Source: an uncultured virus (IMG/VR IMGVR_UViG_3300009499_000096)
Lineage: Duplodnaviria > Heunggongvirae > Uroviricota > Caudoviricetes
IMG/VR virus record: IMGVR_UViG_3300009499_000096
DNA: 64,000 nucleotides
Reading direction: 5' to 3' (one strand)
Shown: piece after piece, positions 8,936 through 64,000 of the stretch
Layout of the letters: each line of letters opens with the position of its first letter
Numbering within the stretch: position 1 is the first letter of the stretch
Notes under the pieces: generated by a model
What the model was told of the DNA's origin: nothing
Seen by the model: the letters and a program-made list of their open reading frames with translations, nothing else
Databases searched by the model: none
Translations under genes and position numbers: made by a program

Positions 8936-8939
8936 TGTA

Positions 8940-27000: not shown

Positions 27001-28407
27001 TTGCTGAGTTCGATCAAGGAACCTTGATGGCACTAGATCCTATTCTTGTTGGAACCTTCAAAGATGCTAATTACGTGGCTTTCATTGGATTATGGGGAGA
27101 CGACTTAGAGGAAATCAACACAGTGTTAGAGAGAGGAACCAAGCCTTGACCACTATTCAAACACCTACAAGCAAAATACCATTCCCTTATGCACAAACAG
27201 CAGATGCAATGGAATCATGGATACGAAAATTTGAAAGAGAACTGCAACAAATTCTCACAGGAGATTTTTCTCCCTGTAACGCTTGCACTCCTGAAACACA
27301 TGGAGATTGTAGGATCTGCATCAAGGACTTGTTGAAGGAGAAGTAATCAATGAAGATGTATAGAGAAAAGGTTGCAGCTCTTAAAAAAAGAGTTGAAGAA
27401 AACAGACAGGGAAAAATTATTTCAACAGAAATACACGGACAGGGAAAACAATGTCCTCACTGTTGTAGCATGAACCTTGAACATAACAACAAATATCCAA
27501 GATTCAGAAAAAAGACTTTCTTCAAAAAAACTGTTGTAATCTTCATGACTAAATGCCTAACTTGTGGCACTCTCTTTGACAAACCTGAAATATTGAAGGA
27601 TCCTTGGGTAATTTTTAGACTTGTAAAAGGTTATGAGGCTTATAATTTGAAGGAGACGACAACATAAAATGAGAATTTGGAGCTTTACTGAATGGATAGT
27701 TGAATGTATCTTAATATGGCACTTCTTTATTTTTGTATCAATAGTTGCATATCCTTACTCTGTTTGGCTAGGAACAATCTTTCTTTCAACTTCATTCATT
27801 TTAGGAACTATAACTTACTATTTTAAACTCCAAGAGAATCAAAAGCTAATGAAAGCATGGGATGATCTCACAAAATGAAGCATCAAACAATCTCTAAAGA
27901 TATTCAAGCCAAGGATATTGGATTTGAAGATGTGAAGAAAAATCTGCTGGAAGCTACAGGTCAATTTGAGAGCAAAGTAAAAATCCAGAGAATCAAGCTC
28001 AAAGTTACTTTCTACTGGAAGGAGAGGAAATAGAGAATGGGTAGATTTACTCCTCTGATTGTTGGTTTTCTTATTGGGCTCTGTATTGTGCTTTCTGTGT
28101 ATATCATACTTCAGAACTATGCTTCTTCAGAGAATATTATTGTGGTTAATGGAACCATCACAAGATTCTACTTAGGAGACGAAATATTCTCTATTGGTTA
28201 TCATCATTACTTTTTTCATGGGATCCAATGGGAAGGTATTAATGATAACCGACTGGTGATTAGTCATTTCTGGAAAGCAACCAATGAAGGTGGTTCATCA
28301 AATATGTATGTGCAACTCTATAAAGAAAGCACTTTTAGAATTAACTCTCAATCTTTTCTAGTGAATGATTTTGCTGATAGCTGGATTGACTTGGAGAAGG
28401 TCTTAGA

Positions 28408-38239: not shown

Positions 38240-41086
38240 GGCATCAGTTATGAAAGAACTGAATTTTAGAGGGGAAAAATTCTTTCATGATGAGGAGAAC
38301 AACATCTTGTCTTTTCATATTCGGGAACCTTTCTATTCTGCTGGCAAAGAGTTCAACTGGTTTGGAGCCACTGTAGGATTAGGCATTAATAGACCAGCTT
38401 TAGATTATGCCATTCAACATGGATTGATGATTAGAGTTACAGTGAAAGATAATAAAAATGCTTATGAAATCAGCCCTGAGTTTTGGTTGAACTGGGCTTT
38501 AAAACATAAGAGCATCAAAAAAAAGGGAACAACAGATTTGTTTGTATGCCAATGGTCAAGAGTTCAATTCAAAACAATTCAAAGGAGCTCCTAGCTTTGG
38601 TGATTATGTTTCAGGTGAAAGAGGCAAGGGAATACTTGCTAAAACATGGAAAGCTCTATACATTAAGAGCTCTAACTATGCTCAAGGAATTTCCTGAGAA
38701 CATCAAACTGATAGGTGATGCTTCATGATGCCAGCTCAGAGTTTGCAGCTTCTTAAAGAAAAATACCCTGAGTTCATTAAGAACTTAAAGTCTAGTGCTG
38801 AAGATGATAGACCTTTTGAAACTGAGGACTGTAAAAAATGTAAGTGTATCACATGGTTTTTTGCTGGCAATGATAGAGGGTTCTGTGGTGGATTTCCTCA
38901 GAAACCTAAACCTGAAGTGGATGTGATCAGATTCTGTTTAGTGAGTGGAACTGAAGCTGATTTTATTGATTTAAAATTAGGTGAAGCCTTGGAAATGTCG
39001 TGTGTTTTTGCTACTTGTGCTGAAGAATATATCACCAAGGTTTTGAAACCTAGAATCAAACTCATCAATCCAGATCTGGTGAGAAAAAACATGAAGAGAA
39101 GGACTAAGAGAAAGGTGGTGAATGAGAAGTGAGGCTGCTGAAGAAAATTGCCTTGATAGCAATTCCCATGCTTCCATTGTGCATACATTGGACTTGCTGT
39201 TTGCTGAGATTAATGTTCTGTCTGTAGGCAAGATTCTCCATGCAACTCACTACCCTTTTTTTCTACATTGAAAGGAGCTGTTCTTAATGATTAACGAACT
39301 TATAGACTTTATTGCTGACTTCTTTGGTGTCACTTGGAAATTCTATGCTTTTATGATAAGTCTCACAGTATCTCTTTACGTAGCCTTCACACCTTTTGGA
39401 ATCTTGGGAGCTCTTGCAGTTCACTCATGGGTTTTTATTCTAGTGATTCTTGAGTGGATTCGTGCTAACTTCTTCTTGCTCAAACCTAAAGATGGCTACG
39501 TGACTTCTGAAGCACGTAAGAAACAACTGATTGAAGCAGAGAAGGAAAGAAGGAAAACCAGAAGGGTAGCTACATAACTTTTTTCATCAAATACCCTACC
39601 CTAAACTGTTAAAAAGTGAAGTTTTCTCCTTTCCATGAGTAAATCTTAAAAGCATTATTGTATAATATGAACAGCGTGATTTCACATGGCTGGTATCCAA
39701 GTATATCTTTCTCATGAAGAATACCTGAGAGTAAGTGCAGTATGTGAAGCTCTTATTAAGAAAGGAACAGTGAAAGAAGGCAAAAAGGCTTTCAACCATT
39801 CTCTAAAACTCTGTCTTTTCACTCATGGGCTTCCTCACTGGGAGAAAGAGTTAGGTCTAAGCACAGAGGATTTAGTGGAATTAGTTAAAAAATACAAGGT
39901 GGTGAGTGATTAGAAATGGATACTCAAACTCATAAATTTCATGTGGCAAAGCACGTAACCTCAGAGGTCTCAGATAAGGATCCTAAGATAACTGTGGTTT
40001 TCAAGGGAAAGATTGACGATGCGTTAGCTGAGATCAAGCTGGTGACAACTGAAGAATCAATCAAAGACGTGTATCCTCTGAATGAAGATTTCAATGTGGC
40101 TATTGGATTTCATAAGATACAAGCAGAGCTGATGCCAAGGAAAGAAGAAGAAGAAAACAAGTTGGATGAAACTCTTGTGTAGGACTCTCAAGGCTTGTAG
40201 AAGGGAACTGGATGAATGGCTTTACAGGAGCTACACTAAACATCTGAACTTCCAATCATTGTGGAGAGCTAGACGTGGAATAAGAAACATTAGATTAATG
40301 CTGGGTATCTAATGAGAAACCCTTTTTCTATCATCTGGAAATGGCTCAATAAACCCTTGGTCAAGTGCAAGTATTGTAACAAGCCTTTCGTGGATAGACA
40401 GAAGCTAATCCAGCATCAGAGAGAGTGTAAACAGAAGAGGAAGAGAGAAAGGAAACTTAAGAAAAGGAGACAACACTAGAAAATGCCTAAAAAACCTTTG
40501 AAATCATGGACTTACAAACAGCTAGTATCCTTGATAGATCCGAAAACTGAGAGTGTTGCCTTCTCTGACAGTGATAAAGACAAGGATCAGAAATATGCTT
40601 GCATCGTGGATAATGAAAATGACAGGATGAAAGCTTTGTTTGTGAAGGGGAATAATGGAAGATATGTGCGTATGGAACTTGAGAAAATGCTGGAGTTCAT
40701 TGCTACCAAACTTGAGCCTCATTTTAACATAAAGGATTTTCTGAAGGAGTTTATTGCACTTAGAACTCCACCTGATCAAGTTGCTTCATTGTTTGAACGA
40801 CTACATAATCCAAAGGCTTCAGTGAAGCATCATAAGGACTGTTACACTTTGCGTATTGGTGGAGACAGAGGGTATCCAGAGGAATTGGTGTTGTGTCAAT
40901 GAGCACTAAGGCTGAGAAACTAATCCTCAAAAAAACCTATAAGTGCTCTGCAAGGATGCAGAAGATGTTGGAATTGGAGTTGAAATTGGATGGTTGTTCT
41001 TCTGAAGAAATTTCTGAAGCTCTTAAGAAACTGACAAAAGAAGGAGCAATTTACATCTGTAGAACGGATAACTGGATCAAAAAGGT

Positions 41087-43950: not shown

Positions 43951-44238
43951 TCATTTCAATATTAGCCATAGTTCTGAGTATATCTAGTTTAGTTCTACTG
44001 TATCTCTCTGAGAGAATGAAGGAGCCAAGGAGACGACACCATAAATGACTAGGAAAGCTAAAATCGTTTTTATAATTGTAATGACTGGACTAGGAGCCTT
44101 TCTTGGCTTAATCCTTGAGCTGATGGTTCAGTATTTTCAGAAAATTAATCATGATCCTTTGATTGTTGTTTTGCTTCCTACAGCTCTGTTGTTTATTTCT
44201 TCTTTATTATCAATTGGTATATTGGATCGGAAAAAACC

Positions 44239-44778: not shown

Positions 44779-45845
44779 ATCTTAAACCTCTCCAGCTTGC
44801 AATGATCTATCTTGTAATCATCGTGTTTGGTTACATGGTGATGCTGACTGTTCAAACTCCTTACCCTAATGGAAGAGACTCAATGTTCCACATTCTAGTG
44901 GCTAGAGCATGGCATAAGGGAATGAATGGTATGATCAGCCCAGTGGTTATGGACATCAACAAGCTTCCTTATCCACCAATGTATCATATTCTACTTGCTC
45001 CCTTCACCTACTCACAGGAATCAGCGATCATAGCTCAGAAAGCTCTCCAATGCCTCTTCTACCCAATTGGATTACTGTTGAATATGCTTCTTGCTAGGAA
45101 ATACAAAGGAGATAAAATAGCTATTCTCTATGGGTTACTGCTGACAGGAACTTACTATGCTTTCGGGATGATGCAAGCTAGACCTCAAAGCCTAGAAGTG
45201 CTACTGTTCCCTGTAGCTGTCTGGGCTCTCTTAGAGAAGAAGAAGCTGTTTTTCTTCATCTCAGTGGCTTCTATGTTCTACTTGCATAGTCCACTGAGTC
45301 TAGCTTTGTCGGCTGGTTTATTCATTTACGGTATCGCAAGGGATAAGAAAGACCTTGGTATCTGGCTCACATTGCTCTTTGTAGCTCCCATGGTATTGTA
45401 TCAAGGAAGCTTCATGCTGAACCAGTCTTTCCTAGACAGATGGGTTACGTCAGGAGACTTAGGAATCTACACTGAAACCATGGACTTCATAGCAGATCCA
45501 GCTTATTGGTTAATCAATGGACTAGGAATGTCAGTTGTCGGATTCTTTGCGATCCCAGTTAGGCTCATCTGGTGGAGAAACCAATCAGAACTGGATAAGC
45601 TCATGGTCTATAGTTTCCTAGGATTCTTAATTGCCACTCCTATTTGGTATATGAGAGTGTTCCACTTTGCCATTATGCCCTTAGCTTTCTTCACAGCAGT
45701 TTTCATCAATAACTCCATCAAAAATTCTAAGAGCAAATACTTGACAGTTCTCCTAGTCGGTTTACTGCTTGTGCAAGTTGTCTGGTTCATGATTAACCCA
45801 GTGTTCTGGATGAGTCCACCACCATACATGGAGCAATACTGGTAA
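44775..45845 (+). CDS. Polytopic membrane protein, GT-C-like glycosyltransferase
   Basis: First loop GRDSMFH..YPPMYH, about 10 TM helices, RPQSL. Confidence 0.65.
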   Translation: MNLKPLQLAMIYLVIIVFGYMVMLTVQTPYPNGRDSMFHILVARAWHKGMNGMISPVVMDINKLPYPPMYHILLAPFTYSQESAIIAQKALQCLFYPIGLLLNMLLARKYKGDKIAILYGLLLTGTYYAFGMMQARPQSLEVLLFPVAVWALLEKKKLFFFISVASMFYLHSPLSLALSAGLFIYGIARDKKDLGIWLTLLFVAPMVLYQGSFMLNQSFLDRWVTSGDLGIYTETMDFIADPAYWLINGLGMSVVGFFAIPVRLIWWRNQSELDKLMVYSFLGFLIATPIWYMRVFHFAIMPLAFFTAVFINNSIKNSKSKYLTVLLVGLLLVQVVWFMINPVFWMSPPPYMEQYW

Positions 45846-46000
45846 TGAAACTGATTACTCTACATCTTCCTGAGCCAATGATTAAGAGTATAGATAAATT
45901 AGTTCCAAAATTCTACCCAAACAGAGCTGAAGCTATCAGAAATGCTTGTAAAGACCTATTAAATCTCCATGAACAACACCTGAAAGGAAGCCTAGAATGA
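45845..46000 (+). CDS. Ribbon-helix-helix (CopG-like) regulator
   Basis: MKLITLHLPEPMIKSIDKLVPKFYPNRAEAIRNACKDLL..; 51 aa, translated by hand. Confidence 0.8.
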   Translation: MKLITLHLPEPMIKSIDKLVPKFYPNRAEAIRNACKDLLNLHEQHLKGSLE

Positions 46001-46659
46001 ACGTCTCCATTATTATCCCAGCATTTAATGAAGAGGAAAGATTACCCAAACTGCTCTTTTGGCTTTGTCCTGTTGCTGAAGTGTCTGGCTATGAGGTTCT
46101 TGTAGCTTGTGATGGTAGCACAGATCATACAAGAGAGATTGCTAAAGCATGGAGAACTAAGCCTATTGGATCCACTGAACGACTGGGGAAAGGTGGTGGA
46201 ATTATTAAAGCTGCTAAAGAAGCTCAGGGAGAAACAATTATGACTATGGATGTGGATTTCCCTCATCCTCTGCTCATAAGCTACTACTATGGATACTTCA
46301 TAGGCTGTGGAGCTGATTTTCTCATCGGAAAAAGAAGTGCTAATGAATCTTTTACTAGACGTTTAGCTTCTTGGCTATTCAAAGAATATACTGAAGCCTT
46401 GTTCGGTTCTCTTCCCGATACCCAGAGTGGTTTTAAGATTATTAATCGTGAGCTCTTTCTCAAAGTTGCTGATGATATTACTATCAAAGGTTATGCTTGG
46501 GATGTGGAACTGTGTTTGAGGCTGAAGGAGCTGGGTTTGAAAATAGAGGAGATGCCTTTTGATTCCAAGTCTGGAAGTAAGGTTCATGTTCTTGAGGATG
46601 GAATCAAGATGGGTTCCAATTTGTTGAAGTTATGGTATAGGAGACGACACCAAAAATGA
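45997..46659 (+). CDS. GT2 polyprenol-phosphate glycosyltransferase (DPM1/GtrB-like)
   Basis: SIIIPAFNEE, DGSTD, GKGGG, MDVD, DTQSGFK, WDVEL. Confidence 0.9.
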   Translation: MNVSIIIPAFNEEERLPKLLFWLCPVAEVSGYEVLVACDGSTDHTREIAKAWRTKPIGSTERLGKGGGIIKAAKEAQGETIMTMDVDFPHPLLISYYYGYFIGCGADFLIGKRSANESFTRRLASWLFKEYTEALFGSLPDTQSGFKIINRELFLKVADDITIKGYAWDVELCLRLKELGLKIEEMPFDSKSGSKVHVLEDGIKMGSNLLKLWYRRRHQK

Positions 46660-50916: not shown

Positions 50917-51699
50917 ATGATTAGCTTGGTGATGCCCTGTCATGATGAGGAGCATCTTCTTCCATACGTTTTACCTTCAATTCAAGCTAGTCCAATAGAT
51001 GAATTAGTTGTCGTCTTAGATAGATGCACAGACCACTCAGAGCAGATTCTTGATAGATGCAGTTTTCCCTTTAAAGTCAGGAAGGTGGTGAAGAAGAATC
51101 AGAGCTGGAGTTGTCCAACTGCTGAAGTGTTTGAGTTAGGCTTCCAAGAGGCAAGGGGAGACTTGTTGTTCACTACTGCTGCTGATATGGTTTTGGATCC
51201 ACACCAGTTCAAAGCCAGCTTCTTTAACGATGCTGATTTCATGAGCTTCTTCTACTACAACATGGATGTTGGCTCCTACAGTGGCTTCCGACATATTCGA
51301 CAATGGTATGAGAATTTTCTTACAAGGTTCCAAGTGTCACGTTTTCTGAAGGGAGCCTTGGGAAAGCAAACTGGTCACATGGCTTTAACTAAGGAGTGCT
51401 GGGAGAAGCTTCATGTGAAGGATACTCCAAGTGAATTTGATGATTTCAAAGAACGTGCTTTAGATGCTGGGTTCAAATACAGATGGCATGGTGAGACTAG
51501 GAACTTTCACTTGAGAGCTGGGCTTTCAAGGAATAGGCAACTTTTACAGGGCATCAGTCGATCTCAGAGAAAAGTGAATCCATTGATGGTTCTTGGTCAC
51601 AGTGTCTTACATTTCAAACCTTCTGTTTTCCTTGGTTACTTGCAAGAAAAGAAACATCATGTTTTCAGTCAGAGGCAATGGTCTAAAGAAAAAAACTAA
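50917..51699 (+). CDS. GT2 family glycosyltransferase
   Basis: ISLVMPCHDEE, VVVLDRCTD, AADMVL. Confidence 0.8.
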   Translation: MISLVMPCHDEEHLLPYVLPSIQASPIDELVVVLDRCTDHSEQILDRCSFPFKVRKVVKKNQSWSCPTAEVFELGFQEARGDLLFTTAADMVLDPHQFKASFFNDADFMSFFYYNMDVGSYSGFRHIRQWYENFLTRFQVSRFLKGALGKQTGHMALTKECWEKLHVKDTPSEFDDFKERALDAGFKYRWHGETRNFHLRAGLSRNRQLLQGISRSQRKVNPLMVLGHSVLHFKPSVFLGYLQEKKHHVFSQRQWSKEKN

Positions 51700-52394
51700 A
51701 CTAATCCCTTCTTCATTAGTTTTGGGAAATACCTTCTCCAAGCCAGATGCAAATATGTGTCAAGTTGCCCAGAGCCCATTCCCATACCACCAAACGTAGT
51801 TCTAAAAGTCCAGCCTGAATAAGCTGTAATATCAAAGGGATCAAACCCATAGTGAGAAACCAGATGAGTAATTCTAAAATGCCTCAAAGAGTGGCTGTGG
51901 ATCTTAGGATCCAGCTCTCTCAAGTTCTCCCTTACAATATGATTAATCCAGTGTCTAGTCAAGTTGAAGCTGAGGCATCCATACTTCTTAATATGTTTCA
52001 GCAAATCCATTGTCCATGGCTCAAACTGCTGGCTACAGGGTAATGCAATTATTTTATGAACCATTTTCTGCTTCTGTTTTTCACTGAGCTCTTTTCCCAG
52101 ATGCCCTTTGATTCTCAAACTTCTCTTAGCAACAGCCATTGTCAGCAACAGAGCCTTCTCTTTCACTTTTCCTTCCAGATAATCCTGAAGAACCCAGTTC
52201 ATATATTTCCCATAACCCTTACTCCTGTTATTTTTCAGCTCAGAAGGAATTGCTTTAGTCACAACCTCAGAAACTCTTGCAGCAGTTAGATACATCACCT
52301 TGCAAATCATACTGGCTCTATAACCTGTGATCCCATCAACTGCTTCTCTGAACTTTCTTAAATTCGGAACCATTGACAATGCAAAGAACCTCAA
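51696..52394 (-). CDS. Tyrosine recombinase (catalytic domain only)
   Basis: Catalytic R (AARVSE), HSLRH, SGW and Y (DTYLH); no obvious N-terminal binding domain. Confidence 0.85.
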   Translation of the reverse strand: MRFFALSMVPNLRKFREAVDGITGYRASMICKVMYLTAARVSEVVTKAIPSELKNNRSKGYGKYMNWVLQDYLEGKVKEKALLLTMAVAKRSLRIKGHLGKELSEKQKQKMVHKIIALPCSQQFEPWTMDLLKHIKKYGCLSFNLTRHWINHIVRENLRELDPKIHSHSLRHFRITHLVSHYGFDPFDITAYSGWTFRTTFGGMGMGSGQLDTYLHLAWRRYFPKLMKKGLV

Positions 52395-52607: not shown

Positions 52608-53444
52608 ATGGAGATAACCATGAGAGGCAAGAAGAGTAAGGTGGTTCGTAAATATAACAAATTAGCGTGGAGAATCAATGATGAATACCTCTTTGATGGT
52701 TTCGCTGGGATAGTTGTAGAGGGTAGGCAAAGGGTAGGGAAGAGCAGTTATGTTAGTCAAGCTCTTGCCTCTGCTTTCGGGGAATGGGAATACAAACCTG
52801 AGATTAGATGTGTGCAACCTAACTTTGAAGCAGTAAAACCTTGGATGGTGTTTCCACCTAAAGAGTTCCTTGAGCTAGTGTTGAATCAGACTAAGAAGGA
52901 GAAGGCTGTGATATGGGATGATGCTGGCTTCTGGTTGTTCGCATTGGACTGGTATGAGCCCTTTGTTAAAAGCGTGTCACGATACATTCAGCTTGCTGGT
53001 AGGCAATTTGCTTTCCTCATCTTAACTACTCCTAATAAGAATTTGATCTCCAGCAAAGTTTTAGCTGCTCTTCCCTCAATGTATGTCTGCAAAGTAGTTC
53101 GGAACAGGGCTTATGGGAGAGACAGCTACAAGTTCAGACCTAGAATAGCTAAGGTTTATGAGAAATGGGATTACCCAGATGGTAAGAAAGGTGGAGTTAA
53201 AACCAGATGGAAAGACAACTTCAACTGTATTCTTGACGATAGTTTCTATGAATGGTATAAGCCTAAGTCTGAGCACTACATGGATATTGGCTTGGAGATT
53301 CTGAGAAGAGAAGTGAACAAGATTACTAAGAAGATGGATCGTAAAGATGAAGAGGAGAAAATGGAGAAAGTGTTTCAAGTCACTGGGAATCCAGAGAAAC
53401 TTAATGAGCTGGATGAAGTTATTAAAAACTTGGAAACTGTGTGA
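52608..53444 (+). CDS. P-loop ATPase (Zot/viral morphogenesis-like)
   Basis: Walker A GRQRVGKS, Walker B VIWDDAG, LILTTP. Confidence 0.8.
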   Translation: MEITMRGKKSKVVRKYNKLAWRINDEYLFDGFAGIVVEGRQRVGKSSYVSQALASAFGEWEYKPEIRCVQPNFEAVKPWMVFPPKEFLELVLNQTKKEKAVIWDDAGFWLFALDWYEPFVKSVSRYIQLAGRQFAFLILTTPNKNLISSKVLAALPSMYVCKVVRNRAYGRDSYKFRPRIAKVYEKWDYPDGKKGGVKTRWKDNFNCILDDSFYEWYKPKSEHYMDIGLEILRREVNKITKKMDRKDEEEKMEKVFQVTGNPEKLNELDEVIKNLETV

Positions 53445-53552
53445 TTGCCTAAGAGAATCTTGATCAAGGAATACAAGAGAAAGAAGAAAGGTGGAAAACG
53501 TAAAACCAGAATAGTTCGGGAGCATAGAAGAAGGAGACCAAGATCAAGATAA
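53445..53552 (+). CDS. 35-aa very basic peptide
   Basis: TTG start directly after the ATPase stop; MPKRILIKEYKRKKKGGKRKTRIVREHRRRRPRSR*. Confidence 0.55.
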   Translation: MPKRILIKEYKRKKKGGKRKTRIVREHRRRRPRSR

Positions 53553-53671
53553 TGGTTCATACGGTTTGATTTCACAGTAATCCTTCATGAAAACATCACT
53601 TTCTACCAGATTTACCCTACCCTAACCTGTAACTTTTTCAAGTTTTTCCTATAAGGCTCTGCTCTGACCAA

Positions 53672-54485
53672 CTACGTTTTTCCTTGAAGCTTATCTCTAG
53701 CTTTCATGTGTTCTTGCCAGCCAGCAGCGAACCCTTCATCAGCAAAATCTACAGCTTCCATGTAGCCTCTTTCCTGAAGAGTAGTGCTGAGATCAGTTAT
53801 GAGCTTGTGTAATTTCAGTTCTGAATAAGCCCTCAAGATTTTCTGTTTATAACGTCTCCTTTGAAAAGCATCTGGAATATCTGCAATCTGCTTCATTCCA
53901 CCTGAAGTAATCATGTTAAGGCTGTGCAATATCTCATCTGCTGTCTTTGTGAAATCCTCTTTGATGCCTTTAGGTAAATATGCGATCAATGTGGCTGCAA
54001 GCTTCAAAGCTATTTCACTATTGCCGTCTGTCTGAGCTTTCCTGATTAAGCCTATGTTAGACCATAGAAACGCAAGGTAGTTGAAACTAACTCCCTTTAC
54101 TTTCCTGACTTCAGACAACTATGATTCCATCTTCCAAACCCTTAAGTTCATTTAACATAGCTGTTTTACTCTGGTCTGGCTCTAACAGGAGACCTTTATG
54201 CCAGTCAGCACTTAGATTAAAAAACTCTTGATCCACCTGTTTCTCAGGGTTCACCAGTTTAGCTACAATGGTGTGGTCTTGGTGTTCAATCCAGTGTCGT
54301 GCTGTTGCAATATACCATTTCTGGGTTCTTGGGTTCCAACTGGATTTTTTTGATCCAAATAGTAGCTGGTTCATGACTTCTAATGGCTGGTTGAAAAACT
54401 CCAGATTACAGGTTTCGCATTGAACTATGTAGTCTGTTTTCTGATGCCACTTTGCAAGTTCCTGTTTAGTTGGAAGGAAACTCAC
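53672..54485 (-). CDS. Two coupled hypothetical ORFs (54111-54485, 53672-54118)
   Basis: Overlapping minus-strand ORFs with no competing + strand ORF. Confidence 0.65.
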
Positions 54486-54523
54486 GTAACCAAGACCACA
54501 CTTTAGTAAATTCCATGGAAAGT

Positions 54524-54558
54524 GTTATAAAGTTTGTTGCTGTTAGAATTTTCTAACA
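54524..54558. promoter_or_regulatory. Divergent promoter: TATA-like box plus perfect palindrome
   Basis: GTTATAAA at 54524-54531; TGTTAGAA-tt-TTCTAACA at 54541-54558. Confidence 0.6.
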
Positions 54559-54579
54559 AGTTATTTTGGTTGAATTGGT

Positions 54580-57500
54580 ATGGGCAAAACAACTCATTAT
54601 GGGAAACCAAAAACATATCCATTCTTCTTTAGAGCTGAGAGAGGCAAAGGAGACACATTCATCAGTGGAACCTTCAAGACAAAGAAAGCTTGTAGGGCTG
54701 CTTCTAAAACCTATCCAAGTGCAAAATCCAACTCAAACTATCGAATCAGAATCATAGATAGGAGAAAATAACCATGGGTAAGCAACCAAAACCAAGAAGC
54801 AAAAAATCATGGACTTTTGTGCATACAAACCAAGAAACCAGAGAGACCTACCGTTTTAGGAAGATGGCTAATGGAACTATCAAGACAGAGAAATTTCTAG
54901 GCTGGAGAACTCCAAAGGGGAAAATCATTCCACCAAGGGGAAAATGACCATGGGGAAAAAAACATCAATAGGTAAAAGAACAATCCATGCTCTTATCTAT
55001 GGAACAAACAAAACTAAGACATTCAAAAGTAAGGTCATTCGTGAACAAACTTTGGCAAAAGGGTATCCTGTCTACCACTTCACTACCCCTAGTGGTGAGC
55101 ATAGAAATACCTCAAGAAAGGGCATCTATGGTGGTGTAGTTCTTACCAAATCAGAAGCAAGAACGAAAAGAAAGAGGAGAAAATAACAATGGTTCAAAGA
55201 AGTTATAAACCAACAAAGGTGGATGGTAGAAAAGTAGTATTTGTTGTTCGTGATGGAAGAATATGGGCAAGAGTTCCTTCACTTTCAAAAAAGCAGTTCT
55301 TAGGAATGGGCTCTACCAAGACTGAAACGATTGCAGATGTCAGAAAAGCCATGAAACACATCAAAGTTACTGCAAAGGGAAAAAGAAGGAGACGATAGAA
55401 ATGGGTAAGTTTAGACCTTCTGGAGCAACTTTACATAAAACCAAAATTAGAGCCCAGAAAGAAGCTAAGGCTCTAAGGAAGATAGGCTGGAGAGCAGAAG
55501 TTCAGCCTTCCACTAAGACAACACAGAAAAGAAGTCCAACTCTAAAATGGGTTTGCCACATAGGGCAAAAAAAGAAAAGGTGATTTTCTTGAGTAAACAA
55601 TCTCCAGTTTATGATAAGAAACCATCTAGGAAACTTTTGGAGTCGGCTGCATCCACTCACAAAACATTGTTCCATGCTGTTGTGGAAGGCATGATTGAGA
55701 GGGAAGAGAAGAAGAGGAAGAAAAGGAGATTCTGGTAAAAATGCCTTGTAGAACTAAGAGAAAAAAGAAGAATCTACTCCAAAAACATCTCTCAGAGAAA
55801 GTAATGTTTGGTGGAATTTTGGTTACTAGAGGAAAAATGGTTGCTGAGTTGCAGAGGATAGCTAAGATACAATTTCCCAAGGATACACTTAGACAAACTA
55901 GGGTAGTTAATATTTACCTTGCTGGGAAAGGGAGACGATAATCATGGGCAAGAAAATGAAATTAAGTCCAATTCAGCGAAAAGTGCTCACTAAAATCAAG
56001 AAGAGACAAATCAAGAACATAGAGAGACCAATAAGGATTGGTGGAAAACAAGCTCTCTCTCCCAAAGGCAAACCATTGAAGGCATCATTCCTGAATATCC
56101 CTAACAAGGAAGCTACTACATTCAGAACCTTGGAGAAGAAAGGGTTGATCTCAGCCTTTGGAAAAACTGAATACTACACAAATTTCAGACTCACTCAGAA
56201 AGGGAAAGCACAATTCAACATGAGGAAATAACCTTGCCTAAAAAACTCACTATATTTGAAAAACATCAATTGGCGATAGCTAAGAGGACATTGAAGATGC
56301 CTAATGTAATGGCTGCTGTGATGGGTGGCATGACTAAGGCTGAAGCCAAGCGTATTGTTAATAGGCTTGGTTCTAAAAGGAGAGGAAAATAACCATGGGT
56401 AAGAAAATGAAGTTTGTCTTGATCAGGAGAACCAAGATAGGACAAACGACTCAGCGATTTACCACTAAGAAGAGAGCCAGTGACATAGCTCTGAAGTGGA
56501 TTCGATACAGAGAAGGTATTGAAGGTGGAGTTCTCAGCATGACTTCCACAGCTCAGGTGTTGCCTATCGGGGAGTTTAACCGACAGCAAAAAGCTCTCCT
56601 TGAGAGAGATAGACGCATTGATGAGAGTAGAAGGCTGAGAATGAAGGCTGCAAGAACTGGCAAAGTGCAAGTTGGCAAAGGACTTGGTAATCTCCTCAAA
56701 GAGAAGAAGATGGCTTGTGGTTGCCCATCAGGAAAACACAAACCTTGGTGTCCATTCCACAAACCAAGCAAAGCTGAAAGAGAGAGAGTTCGTAAAGCAG
56801 AACAACATTGGGAAAGGAGTTTGGGAATACGATGAAGAAAAAGAGAGCTCCTAGAAAGAAGTGGCTTTCTCCCTCTATGAACCCAAGAAAACTGTTTGAT
56901 GTAGAACTCTTGGATACTAGACCATCACCAAGTAGAACAATCTTGAAAGTTACCAGAAGTGGAACACATCAGATGCAAGCAGTTAGAAAAGCTGCTAAAA
57001 TTCTTCCACCTTCTATCAACTTACAGGAATGGAGAGATCCAAGGGAGAAGAAGTATTCAAGATATGTCTTTTTGACAGGAGAATTGAAGTAAGATGCCAA
57101 GGGCTGTTAGTAGAAAAACGAAAAAACCTCTTCTAGCTAAACGGAAGTCTCATGCACATGATTTGCTGCTTGAAATGAAAGAAGCTAATGAAAGAAGTGT
57201 CAAAAAAGGTGTTGCTACGAAACTCTCATACAGAGTAGTTAAGCTCCAAAAAGGTTATGGAATTTACTACAAGAAAACTGGAAGATGGAGATAATCAAAA
57301 TGAAATTGAAAAACCACAAGAGGGCTCAGAAACTTGTTGGAACAACCATTGAGTTTGTTCCATGGTATCAGACGTTCAGAAAAGACACTACAATGACTGG
57401 AAAATTAATGAGAATCAGAGGAGCTATGGGTAGTAAAAGAGGGAGACCAGCAAAATCAGCAGACAAGATGATGGTCATTAAACCTACTGGGAAAACTAAG

Positions 57501-60500
57501 AAATGGCTCAAGGATATTGGGCTCATGAAACCAAAGCAGAAAACTATTGTTCGGCTTCTTACTGGGCATAAAGTCAGAAGCCAAACCAAACTGAAGAGGG
57601 GAAAATAACCATGAAGGGAAATCATAAGAAAATAGCCAGTGAACGTGAAACTATCCGAAAAGGTATAAGCCAACTGCTCAAGGAGATTGGGATGTCTAGT
57701 GCCAGCAAAACAGTGTTACAGGTCAAGAAACCAGAGGATTTGAGCACGTTCATCCGAACTGCTCAGGGAAGATTCAAGCAGATGGGAGCTGGAGCTCCAC
57801 CTAAGATTCAGAAATCTGTATCAACTGCTGTTCAGATGCTGGCTCAGTTGGAGAAGAAATACAAAAAACCCTTGAAGTATGAGCTTACAAAAATCTGGTG
57901 ATTGACATGGCTAAGAAGAAAGACAAGAAGAAAGAGAAGAAGAAGAAAAAGGACAAGGGGAAAGATAAGAAGAAATCCTTGGTCTCAGTAGAAAAAACTA
58001 CTGATTCTGGAAAATTGAAAAAGAGCAAGAAGAAAGGAAAGAAAAAAGGCAAGAAAAAAGGCAAGAAGAAATCTGGGCTCTCAGTAGCTGAAGCTATTGG
58101 TTTGGGAGAATTTAAACTGAAACCTCCAAGTGAAGTATTGTTTGAAGAGGTATGACAGATGGCTAAGAAGAAACTGAGTGAAATGAGTTACAGTGAGATA
58201 CTTCAGAGAAACATAGATCGTCATAATCGGAAGAGAGCTAAAAGCTTGGCTATGTTCCAAGCTGAACAGAAGAGGCAAGGAAAGAAAGCTAATGAGCCCA
58301 TAGACTTGATGAAAATGGTAATGGGTAGGTGATTGTGAATGGGAACACGTATTAGAAAGCATGGAGAAAAATCTTGGGAAGTTTATGGAACTGGATTTCC
58401 AGTGTTTATAGCACAATCAAAGAAAAAAGCTGATTCTGTCGCTAAAAGACGAAGGACAATTCTCAAAAATCGTAGAAAGAAGAGGAGACGATAGAAGATG
58501 AGTGCTGAACAGATTGGTGGAGTTGCTATGATGGGGATGGCTTTAGCTTCTCAAGCATTTGTGGTGGATATGGCAAGTAGTCTCATCACAGGGCAAACTA
58601 GGCTTACAACATTCAGCAGAAGGAGACCTAAAAGCAAGATTGCCAGAACTAAAGCTGGAAAACCATACTTCAGAATCATAGCTTATGAGAGTAGCCGACA
58701 TGGATTAATAATTCCTAAAAGAAGAATTGCAAGGCTCCCAAAAACAGCTATCTCAGCTATGGGAACCTTCTTTGATCCCGACACACATCATACAATCGTG
58801 GAAAGGGCTGCTAGACTTCAAAAGGGTAAGAAGAGAAAGAGCCAAATCAAATCAGCCAGAGTTACCCTACCAGCAAGCACAGTTAGTAAAATGATATTTG
58901 GATAGGATGAAAAATGACAAGATACTACACAATCAGAGACAGATACACTAGCAAGGACTTGGTTCTCACCAAAGCTGAGGCTATGAGAGCTCATGAGAGA
59001 GCTAAAGCAATGAAGAAGAAAGTGGTTAAGAACTTGGAGAAAATAACATTCTCTAAAGTGAAGGGAGTCAGTGAAAGGTCTCTGTTTGAGCTGCAAGGAG
59101 TGTTACGTTATCAAAAAGGACTCAAGAAGGGGAGAAGCTGACCATGGGCTACGTGCTATATGTTCATAACAAGTTTGGCTCAGGTAAACGCAAAGGAAAA
59201 CCGAAAGGATATGGACAATGGCATCCATCAAAAGCCTCTGCTGAACGACATAGAAAGAATCAGAGAGATACCTACAAAGATAATCCCAAGGATTTGATGG
59301 GAACCAGAATCGTGAAAGTTAAAGCTAATCATTCAAGGTTATCCTCAAAACAAATCAGAAAAAAATCTTTGGAAAGTGAATGAAAATGGGTAAGAAACTT
59401 AAAGCTTTGAAACGTAAAATCAAAACTCTCAAGAAAGACGTGGAGAAGGACTATCGGAAAACGAAAAAGGAGCTCCAGAAGCAGAAGAAGAAGGCTGAGA
59501 AGAGATATGCTGGTGTCGGGAAGAAAGTTGCAAAGGTTCAGAAAACTGCTCAAGCATGGTCTCTTAAGGTTCCTACTACTGCTGAACTTATTGGATTGGA
59601 TGAACTCACGAAAAAGAAGAAGAGGAGACGACACTAGAAATGTCTAAGAAATATGGCTACTTAGTAAGAGGAAAGAAGGTGAAACAGGGAAAATTCTGCA
59701 AGACTTTAGGTGAGGCTGGTAGAGAATTAGTTAGACAGTTACGTGCTGGTGTGGAAAATGTTAAGGTTTCACCAATTAAAAATAAGAAAATGGCTGACCA
59801 GTATTCAAAGAAAATCATTAGAAAGAGGAAGGGGAAATAACCATGGTTAGAACTTTGAAGGAAACAAAATCAAGTTATGAAAGACCAAAAGGCTGGGGAA
59901 TGTTCCATACACATTACGGAAAGAAAACTCTTGCTGAACGTCATGCTAAAAGACTTGAGAGAACTGACCTCTTGACCACAGCTATAGTTAAAACTCCTAA
60001 AGGCTGGAATGTTCTTCATAAATCCAATAAGAGAAGTCTGGAATTGGTCAGAAAACAAGTCGCAAAGAGGGGATAAATCATGCCAAAGAGACATTCAGGT
60101 TTTCTTTCAGTAGGTGTAGAGATAGATAAGAGTATCAAAAATCTTAGAAAGACTCTCAGGAAAGAAGGCATCCCTATTGTAGCCATTAAAAGAGCATCGC
60201 CACATCCACTTTTTGACTTGGATTTACCAAAGGGTTCTCATAGATACCTTGTCTCTGTTCCAGCAGCATATCTATATGGTCAAAGAGCTGAGTCTCTATC
60301 TGGTCTGAGGAAAAAAAAAGGGGAAATAATCATGCCTAAGAAAAGAAAGAAGAAAGTAGAGGAAGAGGAAAAACAATCAAGAGTTAGCCGATTACTAGGC
60401 TTGCCTCTGAAAGCCATGATGAAGCTTGGAGACTGGGAGAGAAAACAGATTGACAAAATCAAAGCTAACAGGATACAAGATGATGCTTTGAAAGCTGAGT

Positions 60501-61038
60501 TGAAGGTGATTGAGGATGCAGCTTACAAGGAAGAATCCAAGAAACTGGCAAAGCAGAGGGGAAAGAAGAAAGCCCATCAAAAGGGGAAGGGAACTGGGTT
60601 CTTTGGCGGTGTTAATCTGAAGATGCCAAACCTCATGGAAGGTATTGATGATCCTTTCAAAACTGATGGAGTGGACAATATGCTGGACACCACAGATAGA
60701 AATGCTGACGAATGGCAAGGTAAAAGGAGACGTGAGAAGAATTGACACCAAAGAAGCCGACAACAAAACGTAAACCCTACAGGACAACTAGACGAATCAA
60801 AACTAAGAAGAAAACCACTACTGAAGATGGTAAGAGGGAGTATCAGAGGAAATTGATGAGGGAAAGACGCAAGGAGCAGAAAGCCCTAATCAACTTTAGA
60901 CCACCATCTCAAACAGTGTTCGGTCACTCTTTTGCCACTGAAGTTACAGGATTTCACCATCCTAGAGACAGCATCATCGCTGATATGATGGGCTTACAGG
61001 GCTTCAATGAGAAGAAGAAGAGGGTTAGCAAGAAATGA
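54580..61038 (+). other. Array of about 25 small Lys/Arg-rich ORFs
   Basis: ORF-track genes plus hand-translated 54774-54947, 56234-56392, 58159-58332, 58339-58494; stereotyped stop-NN-start junctions. Confidence 0.85.
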
Positions 61039-61123
61039 GCAAGGAAATGAACCTAGGTAACAAGAGGGAACAAGCTTCCATCCACAAGATAGACCTATCT
61101 CATGATCTTTTGGCTCAGATTAG

Positions 61124-62134
61124 ATGGACTGTGAGAGCCCAGAAGGAAGCTTTGAAGAGCAAGGAAGTGTTGAAGGAAAAATGAGCAAACTTCACGTAAA
61201 GAAACTGAGAATTAGAATCAAGAAGTTCGATGCAAGTAAGAAAGTTAAAGCTATGTCACGACAGCAAAGAGCTGTAGCTAGGAAAAAAATGATCACTGAA
61301 TCCATGGCTTTTCAGATGTGGTGGAACGCACGATCAACCCTTAGACCAATCCCATCCGATCCCTACAGAGCCTTCATGATAGACATAGCTCTGTATGCTA
61401 AACCTCATCACCAAGAAGTGTGGAAGCATAGAACAAACCGATTGGATTATCCACCTGTTGATTTCCCGAAAGGATTTCCCCGAAAAAGAAGGAGACTTCC
61501 ACCAAGGAAAGATATTAAGAGATTCAAGAAGATCCCGAAAGCAGCCCAGAAAAGAAAACTCACTCCAGCAGAAAAATCTGTTGTGCAAGAAGTGGAGCAG
61601 TTCAACCTCAAATACCATCTTCCTGAAACAAGAGTAGTGTTCCAAGAAAAAGTGAGTGGTGGAGCCCAATATGTTCATAGTGTTTTTGGTGGTATTCCAG
61701 CTATGATTCTTTTGCCATCTCCTCTGATAGCTGGTATGGAAAAAGGCAAAGGATGGAAACAGCAAGCTGAAGGAACAATATTCCATGAACTAGGACACCA
61801 TGCTCACGTAGCCTATGGATACAGTATTCCAACAACAAGTCCTTTGAGTAAAGCCATTCCGAAAGCATACTACTCTGTCAGCCGAAAGGAGAAAGAGAAA
61901 ATAGCTTGGGGAGTTGCAAGGAGACACATTGAACGTGAGAAAGAAACTGGCTGGACACCTGTAATGGGCTGGTCAAAGAAAACTTTTCTAGGAACTTATC
62001 TTGGAACCACACCATTTATGCAAGTTGTTCCTGAAGATTACCAAGTTCCTAAAATGCCTCAGATTCCTAAGAGATACAGGGTTCCTAGTCAGAAGAAGAA
62101 AACTGGAAAGAAAGGTTCCTTGTTATGGACATAG
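61124..62134 (+). CDS. Basic protein with a zincin HExxH motif (putative metalloprotease)
   Basis: GTIFHELGHHAH followed by a downstream E..AW; true start possibly 61181. Confidence 0.6.
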   Translation: MDCESPEGSFEEQGSVEGKMSKLHVKKLRIRIKKFDASKKVKAMSRQQRAVARKKMITESMAFQMWWNARSTLRPIPSDPYRAFMIDIALYAKPHHQEVWKHRTNRLDYPPVDFPKGFPRKRRRLPPRKDIKRFKKIPKAAQKRKLTPAEKSVVQEVEQFNLKYHLPETRVVFQEKVSGGAQYVHSVFGGIPAMILLPSPLIAGMEKGKGWKQQAEGTIFHELGHHAHVAYGYSIPTTSPLSKAIPKAYYSVSRKEKEKIAWGVARRHIEREKETGWTPVMGWSKKTFLGTYLGTTPFMQVVPEDYQVPKMPQIPKRYRVPSQKKKTGKKGSLLWT

Positions 62135-62178
62135 GCTTAAGGGAGCATCAGTATTAGATTAAATATGAGTTGAATCCA

Positions 62179-64000
62179 ATGCCAATGAAAGTAATTGCAG
62201 CAAAGAAAGAGATTACTACATCTGGCTTGACTCCCGAACAACAGGAAGCTTTCAATCCAGTAGCTGAAGAGTTCTGGACTCAAGTTGATGTGGAAGCTGC
62301 AAAGTCTCAAGAAGAGTTTGAAGCTCAGTTAGCTGGAGCTAAGAAAGAGGCATTGGCAACTTGGCAAGCAGAACTTCAAGGACAAGTTAGTAAGTCAGAG
62401 TTTGAAGCTGAAATCGCCAAGATGGAGCAAGAGCAGAGAGCTAAGTTTACAGGTGAAGTAGGAACCAAGGAATCTGAAGCTAGAGCAAAGTTTGAAGCTG
62501 AACTGGCTGAGAAACGATCAGAGTTTCTGAGTGGACTTGAAACAGCTAAGAGAGCTGGTAAAAGACAGTGGCTTGCAACTTATAGACGACATTGGACACC
62601 AAGAGAAATGCGTTCTTGGGTAGTGGAGCAGAAAACTGGTTTTGAATCTGCTGTAGCTGGAGAACGTGAAGCCTTTGAATCACATCTAGGTGAATGGAAA
62701 GGTCTTGAATCACAAGCCTTTGAAAAGGGCTTAACTTCATGGAAGGAAGAACAGCTTGGAACATGGACTACACAAGCAGAACTATTGGCTGAAGGGCAAG
62801 AGCAGAGAATGAAGCTGGAAATGGCTTCATGGGAGTTTGCTGAAAGAGAGAAATGGACTAGCAAAATGCTTTCTTATCGTGAACAGCAAGCTAAGGTTCT
62901 TGAAGGATACAAGCTAGGTGAGTTCAAGGAAACAGCAAAGCCTCAGCCGACTAGCCTCAGCCAGCAAATCCTAGCATGGACACCACCTGACCTACCAGAG
63001 TGGAAAATAGAATTTCCCTTCTCAATCCCAGTGAAAGGTGGAGCTGTCCAGATAGGGTTTGATGTTGGAAAGTTCTTTGAAGGCTTGGCTAAAGGTGGAG
63101 CTGAAGCTGGAGCTGGAGTGATTGCTAGTGGAGAATCATTAGTGTATGGTGTAGGTGGATTGCTTGGTTTGCAAACACCAGCTCCACCACCTACTCTAAC
63201 TGCTTCCCTACTACGATCAGGTGTGAAAGGGTTAGGTGAAGCAACTGGACAGTGGAAAACAAGTTGGGAGTATGATGTTGGAGACATATTCATGGAACAG
63301 GGAGCTCCTTATGCTCTTGGAACATTGCTTGGAGACGTGTTGATGTTCTGGGCTGGAACCAAAGTGGAGAAAGCTGTAACAACAAGAGTAATCCCCAAGG
63401 TGAAGCAAGTTGTGTCACCTGTAACTCAGAAAGTCAGCCAAGCTTGGAGACTGTCAAAAACTGGTATAGCCTTGGAGAAGTCAAAGATCGCATTAAGAAC
63501 AGCTATGCCACATTGGAAAGGAAGCAGACTGGAAAGCTGGATTATTCAAAGGGGAATTAAACCATCCACTGAAACATTGGCTATTCACCAGCAACTAGGT
63601 AAATATTCAGCAAGGACATCTATTGGAGTTCCCAAATACACTGGTTACGCTGCTAAAGCAACCAGACAGATGGCTCCATCAGTCATAGATATTCCTGAAC
63701 TGGCTAGAGCTCATGCACTTGCTCAGAGAGGAGTTGTTACAGGAGCACAACTTCAAGCAGAAGCTGGAGCATGGGAAATGACCTTGTTCCCAAGAGCCAC
63801 TGGTCAATTAATAACTAAAGGTGTAGCTCCAAGTGTGCTTGGAACAGCAGCCGAAATTGGACTAACAGAGTTTGCTAAGGGAGCTGTTGTTGGTGGATTG
63901 AAAATGACAGATCTCTCAAAGAGGATAACTTCTTGGAAGGTAAGAGCCTTAGCTAAACCACCAAAAGGATTCCTTGAGCCAGTGGTAGGTGGAAAACAAG
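62179..64000 (+). CDS. 3'-truncated large coiled-coil protein (>600 aa)
   Basis: Frame 1 open from ATG 62179 to the window end (hand-translated); E/A/K-rich helical repeats then a Gly-rich hydrophobic region; missing from the ORF track because it has no stop. Confidence 0.8.
   Translation, partial: MPMKVIAAKKEITTSGLTPEQQEAFNPVAEEFWTQVDVEAAKSQEEFEAQLAGAKKEALATWQAELQGQVSKSEFEAEIAKMEQEQRAKFTGEVGTKESEARAKFEAELAEKRSEFLSGLETAKRAGKRQWLATYRRHWTPREMRSWVVEQKTGFESAVAGEREAFESHLGEWKGLESQAFEKGLTSWKEEQLGTWTTQAELLAEGQEQRMKLEMASWEFAEREKWTSKMLSYREQQAKVLEGYKLGEFKETAKPQPTSLSQQILAWTPPDLPEWKIEFPFSIPVKGGAVQIGFDVGKFFEGLAKGGAEAGAGVIASGESLVYGVGGLLGLQTPAPPPTLTASLLRSGVKGLGEATGQWKTSWEYDVGDIFMEQGAPYALGTLLGDVLMFWAGTKVEKAVTTRVIPKVKQVVSPVTQKVSQAWRLSKTGIALEKSKIALRTAMPHWKGSRLESWIIQRGIKPSTETLAIHQQLGKYSARTSIGVPKYTGYAAKATRQMAPSVIDIPELARAHALAQRGVVTGAQLQAEAGAWEMTLFPRATGQLITKGVAPSVLGTAAEIGLTEFAKGAVVGGLKMTDLSKRITSWKVRALAKPPKGFLEPVVGGKQ

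Follow-up and report, generated by a model that had tools for sequence, protein, structure and literature searches.

The stretch of DNA analysed here (the window) is 64,000 nucleotides (nt) long and is filed as an uncultured virus of the Caudoviricetes (IMG/VR record IMGVR_UViG_3300009499_000096). It is a metagenome contig, and the sequencing run that matches it best is a subsurface metagenome; no RNA run is among the matching runs listed. Between positions 54580 and 61038 the + strand carries an array of 25 back-to-back open reading frames (ORFs) of 51-221 amino acids (aa), 24 of which do not exceed 146 aa; about 26 genes are counted in the arrangement found in relatives, where g24 is split in two. 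All 25 products are basic, with an isoelectric point (pI) of 10.0-12.0, 19-40% lysine plus arginine and 3-14% aspartate plus glutamate, and none of them passes the hydropathy threshold used for the small membrane ORFs of the window. Lysine and arginine account for 18.1% and 9.7% of the residues in the array and for 9.7% and 5.5% outside it. When genes are mapped roughly along the window in 4-kb bins, the two bins that contain most of the array stand out with a median pI of 10.7-10.9, against 7.6-9.9 in every other bin. The row of about 25 consecutive small basic ORFs, which a first-pass annotation made from the letters alone had pointed out, is thus confirmed. The members are as follows.

54580-54771, + strand: g01, 63 aa, pI 10.7, MGK head, RRK-stop tail
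54774-54947, + strand: g02, 57 aa, pI 11.5, MGK head; a small all-beta family also present in other dark-matter contigs
54950-55186, + strand: g03, 78 aa if started at the second ATG (public callers use 54944, which gives 80 aa); MGKK head, RRK-stop tail
55189-55398, + strand: g04, 69 aa, pI 11.9
55401-55583, + strand: g05, 60 aa, pI 11.8, MGK head
55547-55738, + strand: g06, 63 aa (ATG at 55547) or 52 aa (GTG at 55580, GTGA overlap with the g05 stop); neither start is confirmed by public calls
55741-55941, + strand: g07, 66 aa; placed after g11 in relatives
55944-56231, + strand: g08, 95 aa, MGK head
56234-56392, + strand: g09, 52 aa, TTG start; exact form missing from the public protein collection
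56395-56835, + strand: g10, 146 aa, MGK head; predicted beta-beta-alpha-beta domain plus long helix; CxC..H..C knuckle
56832-57092, + strand: g11, 86 aa, ATGA overlap with g10
57094-57294, + strand: g12, 66 aa
57300-57608, + strand: g13, 102 aa; AT-hook-like KRGRPAK
57611-57901, + strand: g14, 96 aa
57907-58155, + strand: g15, 82 aa, lysine-rich low complexity, 40% lysine plus arginine
58159-58332, + strand: g16, 57 aa
58339-58494, + strand: g17, 51 aa, pI 12.0; 223 other letters in its place in two runs
58498-58905, + strand: g18, 135 aa
58914-59141, + strand: g19, 75 aa
59144-59383, + strand: g20, 79 aa; paralogue of g23
59386-59637, + strand: g21, 83 aa, MGKK head, lysine-rich
59640-59840, + strand: g22, 66 aa; body swapped for 171 other letters in three runs
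59843-60076, + strand: g23, 77 aa; paralogue of g20
60080-60745, + strand: g24, 221 aa; in this contig a fusion of two cassettes of about 82 and 137 aa
60742-61038, + strand: g25, 98 aa, TTG start overlapping the g24 stop

The spacing of these ORFs is unusually regular. After refinement of six starts, 13 of the 26 junctions have a spacer of 2 nt and five a −4 overlap, whereas among 99 junctions between + strand ORFs at 16-51 kb the 2-nt spacer occurs once and the −4 overlap 33 times. Nearly every start in the array is preceded by an AGGAG- or GGGGA-type ribosome-binding sequence. Exact ORF products were present in public gene calls for nine of ten and then six of ten members looked up, the misses being g09 and four alternative starts. 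Homologues exist for all three members searched: g10 has three full-length ones (75-79% identity) and a partial one, g20 has a single homologue outside the array (61% identity), and 12 proteins out of 1.84 billion represent the g02 family at E ≤ 1e-3, 11 of them small and one a repeat protein that we consider spurious. Variation between the window and its relatives, for which 40 of about 290 differences were listed and 39 of these fall in one gene only, comprises 23 synonymous and 16 non-synonymous sites, with 23 sites at codon position 3. Given the spacing, the Shine–Dalgarno sequences, the public gene calls, the homologues and the synonymous lean, the array ORFs are real genes.

The opposite idea would be a purine-rich, low-complexity stretch that is open by chance and encodes no real proteins. 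The + strand of the array does contain more purine than elsewhere (62.7% vs 55.2%), g15 is a lysine-codon repeat that draws unrelated contigs, and the array proteins lack family matches. However, conserved homologues of the same length exist, the listed sites show a synonymous and third-position excess, the Shine–Dalgarno sequences and spacing are regular and both proteins submitted to fold prediction gave confident folds. Moreover, glutamate reaches only 5.0% against 18.1% for lysine although its codons are purine-only, so that purine richness alone does not account for the charge. Such artefact ORFs, which the first-pass annotation had named as the opposing case, are contradicted by the homologues, the spacing and the third-position excess, and we find this explanation hardly credible.

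The gene borders consist of joints of about 15-30 nt in which a Shine–Dalgarno sequence lies within the last codons of the upstream gene and is followed by the stop codon, usually 2 nt, and then ATGGGNAAR. Repeat families D3-D5, D7 and D18-19 sit at these borders. Two joint types are well defined. Type A, GGRRAAATRAYCATG, has six copies in 64 kb, all of them within the array (0.10 expected), while type B, GGAGACGAYA, has 16 copies in the window, all on the + strand, four in the array and 12 elsewhere (0.08 expected); in 15 of the 16 an ATG follows within 3-8 nt. Their positions in the array are given below.

54762-54776, + strand: joint type A, g01/g02
54938-54952, + strand: joint type A, g02/g03
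56383-56397, + strand: joint type A, g09/g10; a deletion ends here, with 14 shared letters
57599-57613, + strand: joint type A, g13/g14; deletion end point
59831-59845, + strand: joint type A, g22/g23
60320-60334, + strand: joint type A, g24a/g24b, inside g24
55388-55397, + strand: joint type B, g04/g05
55931-55940, + strand: joint type B, g07/g08
58484-58493, + strand: joint type B, g17/g18
59624-59633, + strand: joint type B, g21/g22

Copies of GGAGACGAYA outside the array lie for example at 27652-27661, 31325-31334, 33751-33760, 44029-44038 and 46640-46649, and throughout the genome the sequence may act as an extended signal for initiation or for junctions. It agrees only in GGAG..GA with a canonical anti-Shine–Dalgarno tail. 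Coupling at such short distances reportedly works via termination-reinitiation in archaea and bacteria.

The joints also explain a feature that had been read from the proteins. After start refinement seven ORFs begin with MGK (g01, g02, g03, g05, g08, g10 and g21), and the tails include RRK-stop, RGK-stop, RRR-stop and GRR-stop. The heads and tails noticed in the first-pass annotation are therefore present, but as a protein signature they dissolve: the tails are the ribosome-binding site of the next gene read in the frame of the upstream one, as in AGG AGA AAA TAA CC ATG, and the MGK(K) heads are the downstream half of the conserved joint ATGGGTAAGAAA (repeat families D3-D5, D7 and D9). It is the conserved DNA joint that encodes both.

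A further joint lies within g24, where the window and its relatives differ by one A.

60311-60319, + strand: nine-A run; one A fewer in all four runs of the relatives, giving ...RKKKGK-stop, TAA TC ATG, a standard joint

With one A fewer, g24 becomes two standard cassettes. In the window contig g24 may be a true fusion, or its form may result from an assembly slip or homopolymer error; the nine-A run is common to both assemblies of the source sample. Two members of the g02 family, P0024 and P0022, are 137-aa fusions, one with a basic domain in front and the other with an acidic tail behind, which fits a merging of cassettes on loss of the stop codon of the joint, as in g24.

Relatives of the array were found in contigs from four runs (X2-X5) of a second study, which contain 27-44% of the words of the region and were matched at ≥80% likeness. 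These contigs are piecewise 88-99.9% identical to the window, yet they differ from it by whole genes. Nine joints between window positions are well supported.

54773 to 55189: g02-g03 deleted, in X3 and X4
54778 to 55401: g02-g04 replaced by 173 other letters, in X2
55743 to 56239: g07-g08 replaced by 180 other letters, in X3
56218/56225: 188 letters added after g08, in X2
56218 to 57597: g09-g13 deleted, in X3 and X4
56383 to 57600: g10-g13 deleted, with 14 shared letters, in X2
57083 joined back to 55741: g11 ahead of g07, in all four runs
58325 to 58495: g17 replaced by 223 other letters, in X3 and X4
59642 to 59823: 171 other letters in place of the body of g22, in X2, X3 and X4

All 18 ends of these nine rearrangements lie no more than 20 nt from a start codon (median 7 nt), while 16.6% of array positions fall within that distance (P ≤ 9e-8 even when each rearrangement is counted once). 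The deletion ends share 4-14 letters; since the assemblies used 31-letter words, which are longer, misassembly driven by repeats is unlikely. The whole-gene differences among the window, X2 and X3/X4 define at least three configurations of the array. Comparison of the array content in related contigs, as proposed in the first-pass annotation, thus reveals whole genes deleted, replaced, inserted or moved at their borders. The lysine-codon repeats of g15 (57907-58155), which have a 12-nt period, are also matched by contigs from unrelated organisms, with a depth of 100-240 instead of about 10, and joints and depth are for this reason unreliable there. No relative came from scans of IMG/VR viral contigs with g27, g28, the initiator-like protein, g10 and the g02-family and g28 alignments, nor from scans of metagenome and genome contigs with the g10 alignment; phage and plasmid records likewise contained no blastn match to 54400-62200, and phages none to g27 or g28 in tblastn.

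Whole-gene turnover at gene borders occurs in a second lineage as well. A scan with P0008, a 90%-identical variant of g02, returned 13 loci, of which only L001 and L002 are true: the other 11 (L003-L013) are out-of-frame matches inside a bacterial gene of 405-415 aa. In L001 and L002 a homologue about 51% identical to g02 lies within a run of 5-8 basic mini-ORFs (pI 10.1-11.1), flanked by small membrane proteins and by a 1361-aa protein with a C-terminal anchor and 56 N-x-S/T sequons where 26.5 ± 4.6 are expected. Nothing else is common to these contigs and the window at E ≤ 1e-3. The two contigs are 96-99% identical, unlike in their cassettes, as a comparison of L001 8679-9163 with L002 2137-2987 makes clear: one basic mini-gene of 194 nt has been added at a gene border, with 17 letters shared at its ends, and one cassette has been replaced (322 nt vs 148 nt), likewise at gene borders. 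The added gene and its neighbour open with identical codons for MPY.

Precise cassette ends are also what integron-like capture would produce, in which the joints would be the specific sites of cassette insertion and excision by a tyrosine recombinase encoded nearby. A candidate gene lies 2.2 kb upstream of the array.

51696-52394, − strand: integrase-like or tyrosine-recombinase-like ORF, 232 aa; Pfam Phage_integrase at E 2.3e-4 and NCBIfam XerA/integron-integrase at E 1e-3, both below cut-off

As in integron arrays, promoterless swappable cassettes would stand behind one promoter and close to a tyrosine recombinase gene of opposite orientation, and the joints contain a CCATGG palindrome. However, spacers of 2 nt within ribosome-binding sequences leave no room for attC-like elements, and neither these nor an inverted-repeat element is present between the genes. 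The 4-14 letters shared by the deletion ends are as in homology-driven exchange, L001 and L002 turn over likewise without such joints, and the recombinase match is weak. Site-specific capture therefore seems very doubtful to us.

The closest described system is the hyperplastic region of T4-type phages, which shows the same behaviour with another connector. Comeau et al. 2014 are said to have described the PeSL cassettes of these phages. According to the account of PeSL motifs in Arbiol et al. (2010; PMC2839356), these mediate modular shuffling, and each combines an early promoter with a stem-loop terminator so that every gene is its own transcription unit. In both systems small genes, mostly ORFans and non-essential, undergo whole-gene insertion, deletion and replacement between near-identical genomes, and the sites of exchange are short conserved sequences at the edges of genes that also carry expression signals, here joints A and B. 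The joints of the array differ in being translational: spacers of 2 nt are too short to house such a unit, no + strand terminator-like site was found at 53400-64000, where promoter-like sites lay below the shuffle mean, and runs of five or more T amount to 0.40 per kb in the array and 1.26 per kb elsewhere. The products of the array, in addition, are all basic. New here are the whole-gene turnover of the array, its translational connector and the uniformly basic cargo.

It had been proposed in the first-pass annotation that the array is one expanded and diversified family with a shared strand-then-helix fold, marked by an [ST]KxxA motif at the start of the helix. The motif does occur in eight of the 25 proteins where 2.6-2.8 are expected (ratio 2.9, P about 0.005), but the pattern was chosen after the fact and is also enriched in the small ORFs of the window outside the array (ratio 2.5, P 0.014 vs shuffles). 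With settings kept equal for real and shuffled sets, an unbiased motif sampler scored 202.9 on full proteins against 199.4 ± 6.1 for shuffles, of which 8 of 30 scored as high, and 210.2 on trimmed ends against 198.1 ± 5.3, with 2 of 30 shuffles as high, so that the array is not clearly set apart from its shuffles. We think that [ST]KxxA fits a generic Ser/Thr helix cap in helices rich in K, A, E and R.

Comparisons of whole proteins point in the same direction. In an all-against-all BLASTP only one of 300 pairs, g20/g23, fell below E 1e-3 (41% identity over 44 aa, E 8e-5). A g20/g23 profile retrieved no further array member above decoys and placed one ORF of the second lineage, L002:2128-2328, just over them (12.1 vs 9.6 bits), and hhalign between the g10, g02 and g20 families gave probabilities of 0.1-0.4%. 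A local stretch like W/F-H-x-SKAxAER is common to g20, g23, the C-terminal part of g10 and L002:2128-2328, which would favour a single family. So would the AlphaFold2 model of g10 (shallow alignment, predicted local distance difference test score (pLDDT) 72.6), with strands at 7-12 and 17-22, a helix at 25-42 that begins at TKKRA, a strand at 52-57 and a long helix, its beta-beta-alpha start being confidently predicted. The model of g02, on the other hand, likewise from a shallow alignment (pLDDT 83.5), is a three-strand meander without helix. AP2-like and integrase arm-type domains have a beta-hairpin followed by a helix near T-K-x-x-A, and residues 7-42 of g10 resemble them in predicted hairpin and helix; yet AP2 and arm-binding families were absent both from the Pfam matches of 28 proteins at E ≤ 1 and from the results of fold searches with g10 and g02, where nothing rose above background. 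Atlas neighbours of g10 residues 1-60 are small DUF1659- and SPOR-like domains with a TM score of 0.7-0.8, which carries little weight for so short a stretch. With the pairwise, profile and profile-profile comparisons negative apart from g20/g23, and with two unlike predicted folds, a single beta-beta-alpha family of nucleic-acid-binding proteins is improbable. As far as sequence comparison can tell, the array proteins are mostly unrelated, only g20 and g23 being detectably related.

None of the array proteins received a Pfam, PHROG, NCBIfam or PADLOC assignment. The sole PHROG match at E ≤ 0.01 among the 25 is that of g24 to a family of unknown function, and PADLOC returned only a 12.6-bit coiled-coil match for g21. 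Binding of nucleic acid by the array proteins, as suggested in the first-pass annotation, is nevertheless plausible from their charge, from an AT-hook-like core in g13 (KRGRPAK; Pfam AT_hook at 15.0 bits, under the cut-off of 17.4) and from a CxCx5Hx3C knuckle at residues 105-124 of g10 that is kept in its three full-length homologues, even though the AP2 or arm-binding families invoked for it were not recovered. Lysine-rich tracts are found in g15 and g21. Searches of PDB sequences with the g02 family, g27, g28 and g08 gave nothing below E 0.01, and our by-eye idea of a winged helix in g08 found no support there. A likeness of the g02 family to the 1318-aa repeat protein P0018, in which 13 weak stretches like F-x-G-F/Y-x-T-A/P-x-G-K correspond to g02 residues 31-52, is judged a coincidence since the key alanine of the repeat is mostly proline in the g02 family; the P0018 repeats look like BRC repeats.

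The coupled block extends beyond the array. Downstream it is continued by the following genes.

61035-61184, + strand: g26, 49 aa, pI 9.8, ATGA overlap
61181-62134, + strand: g27, 317 aa, basic, with an HELGH sequence; ATGA-coupled to the array; no protease family above cut-off
62179-64000, + strand: g28, 849 aa in full, cut by the end of the window; N-terminal coiled coil, hydrophobic centre rich in Gly and Ala

ATGA overlaps link g25 to g26 and g26 to g27, and a gap of 44 nt separates g27 from g28 (ATG 62179 of the public call), which belongs to no family and for which a single homologue, 33% identical, was found. We regard the array and g26-g28 as one translationally coupled operon, in keeping with the missing terminator-like sites and the scarcity of T runs. 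Upstream, an intergenic region of 94 nt holds a TATA-like element and a palindrome, behind which lie an initiator-like ORF and two possible regulators.

52608-53444: replication-initiator-like ORF, phrog_5484, E 1.7e-17
53672-54118, − strand: 148-aa ORF divergent from the array, without family match; possibly a regulator
54111-54485, − strand: 124-aa ORF directly upstream and divergent, without family match; possibly a regulator
54525-54532, + strand: TATA-like TTATAAAG, about 47 nt before the ATG of g01; candidate archaeal-type promoter element
54541-54558, both strands alike: perfect 8-2-8 palindrome TGTTAGAA-TT-TTCTAACA, 100% complementary; candidate operator

No sigma-70-like site was found at the TATA-like TTATAAAG. 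The first-pass annotation had placed the array between a palindrome-bearing promoter and probable virion genes. The palindrome at 54541-54558 agrees with this, but capsid, portal and terminase genes were not recognised.

This setting favours the main rival reading, an early accessory operon in which host-takeover or anti-defence effectors and regulators that are not packaged would be expressed from the divergent promoter, comparable to the ORFans of T4 hyperplastic regions, the lambdoid nin region or anti-CRISPR loci. Turnover of whole genes between near-identical genomes and the small DNA-binding-like features of g13 and g10 would be compatible with it, and T4-type hyperplastic regions are described in PMC2839356 as many non-essential small genes shuffled at conserved motifs. 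On the other hand, extreme basicity in 25 of 25 products would not be expected of effectors with different targets, no anti-defence match was obtained in PADLOC, Pfam or PHROG, the array is coupled downstream to the large g27 and g28 proteins, and L001 and L002 present their mini-genes among membrane and glycoprotein-like genes. An early operon of this kind is a serious possibility, although we would not bet on it.

The reading that we prefer, with a probability of about 0.5, is that of a hyperplastic cassette operon with translational coupling, whose redundant products would bind nucleic acid and are perhaps packaged with the genome. The borders are standardised while the members are unrelated, which makes this a cassette region rather than a paralogous family. 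As short direct repeats, the joints would serve as homology-driven sites of deletion, duplication, replacement, insertion and moves, and any recombined survivor would keep its frame and its own start signal. The products would bind nucleic acid through their charge. Since they are uniformly basic yet individually dispensable, redundancy in a bulk task such as neutralising or condensing the genome would be the simplest expectation, a redundant pool of charge-neutralising DNA-binding proteins condensing it together. The proteins would most likely be co-produced and packaged beside the genome, like the internal proteins of T4 or VP2 of SSV1, and some of them may have specific extra tasks after entry. 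Packaging would be compatible with the ATGA coupling of the array to g27 with its HELGH sequence and its place upstream of the coiled-coil and Gly-rich g28, as well as with the g02 homologue in L001 and L002, which lies among mini-genes beside membrane and sequon-rich anchored proteins.

Several points weigh against this reading. The array stands directly behind a divergent, palindrome-bearing control region and next to integrase-like and initiator-like genes; temperate phages keep early accessory genes beside such a region, and fast cassette turnover is a hallmark of anti-defence loci too. Capsid, portal and terminase genes were not recognised anywhere in the 64 kb, so that the element is not proven to be a virus and a structural neighbourhood can only be presumed. 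All relatives are contigs rather than reads and stem from a single further study. Six further joints between window positions, mostly off gene borders, were set aside because their sides measured 20-38 letters, the depth was foreign, unknown letters lay between or they fell in the g15 repeat. Folds were predicted for only two of the approximately 26 proteins, g10 and g02. Finally, the synonymous excess comes from a listed sample dominated by g08, which has 15 synonymous and 5 non-synonymous sites among those listed, while in g01, g05 and g06 the non-synonymous sites listed equal or exceed the synonymous ones.

A bolder form of our preferred reading takes the array as a rack of interchangeable, individually dispensable, protamine-like DNA-condensing cassettes whose joints double as an integrase-free recombination system. 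Recombination could then join any pair of joints, always with an in-frame, expressed outcome, and the array would shrink, grow and trade cassettes with other viruses. We put this forward tentatively. The g02 cassette, common to the window and to the otherwise unrelated L001 and L002, might then be an example of trade between viruses, a suggestion to be taken with equal caution.

Both packaged systems named above resemble the array in part. For the internal proteins of T4, PMC3012670 describes a diverse packaged set with only a targeting leader in common, whose lysines contact DNA phosphates and which is ejected to counter host defence. The likeness of IPI-IPIII to the array lies in diverse small proteins with a short common N-terminal element. 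There is no sequence relation (PHROGs), the MGK(K) head in seven members of the array belongs to the DNA joint, the array has far more genes, and no head genes were recognised in the window. VP2 of SSV1, in what PMC3367457 reports of it, is a DNA-binding protein of the virion, dispensable and patchily distributed among relatives, with its gene beside structural genes. Like the array members it is small, basic and dispensable, and its virus is archaeal, as the element in the window probably is; it is encoded by a single gene, not an array, and no similarity was detected (PHROGs; blastn of the region against phage records). In the open-access full-text literature we found nothing comparable to an array of small basic proteins in archaeal viruses, which is not proof of absence.

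If our preferred reading is true, the array would be a second plug-and-play design for gene arrays, with a ribosome-binding, stop and start module as connector instead of a promoter-terminator unit or attC, by which shuffled genes would keep both frame and translational coupling. It also points to at least two dozen very basic, mutually unrelated mini-proteins without known family, from a lineage not found in IMG/VR, phage or plasmid records. Their role, be it in condensing the genome, entering with it or disarming the host, bears on how DNA is packaged without recognisable capsid machinery in probably archaeal viruses, and the array bears on how new small proteins get recruited.

The host is probably archaeal, to judge from an XPB-type helicase, the XerA-type best match of the recombinase, a C2H2 finger, a sequon-rich surface protein and the TATA-like box, each of them a weak hint. 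A genome contig scan with the sugar amidotransferase of the window, taken as a clue to the host, found no relative. That enzyme belongs to a sugar- and cofactor-modifying cluster at 7910-16295 with two radical SAM enzymes, several methyltransferases and glycosyltransferases, where a WbuX-type N-acetyl sugar amidotransferase is fused to an FkbM methyltransferase (E 7e-71). Beside the cluster, at 303-2708, lies an 801-aa PKD-domain surface protein with twice the expected number of N-x-S/T sequons.

Elsewhere in the window, the + strand between 16000 and 51000 carries about 100 ORFs with a median length of 70-110 aa. They are not basic, many of them span the membrane once or twice, and almost none has a family. 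Among the phage-like genes of the window, a phrog_6247 protein at 23078-24001 (PHROG label 'DNA topoisomerase') shares 33-37% identity with proteins encoded by phages of many bacterial genera, and a 374-aa protein at 18372-19496 resembles DUF932 clusters drawn mostly from tailed viruses (Atlas score 0.96). DUF5131, MT-A70 and PAPS reductase proteins belong to this phage-like set as well, and small C2H2 zinc-finger, ribbon-helix-helix and Lar-like zinc-ribbon proteins are encoded at 40312-40479, 45845-46000 and 22890-23081.

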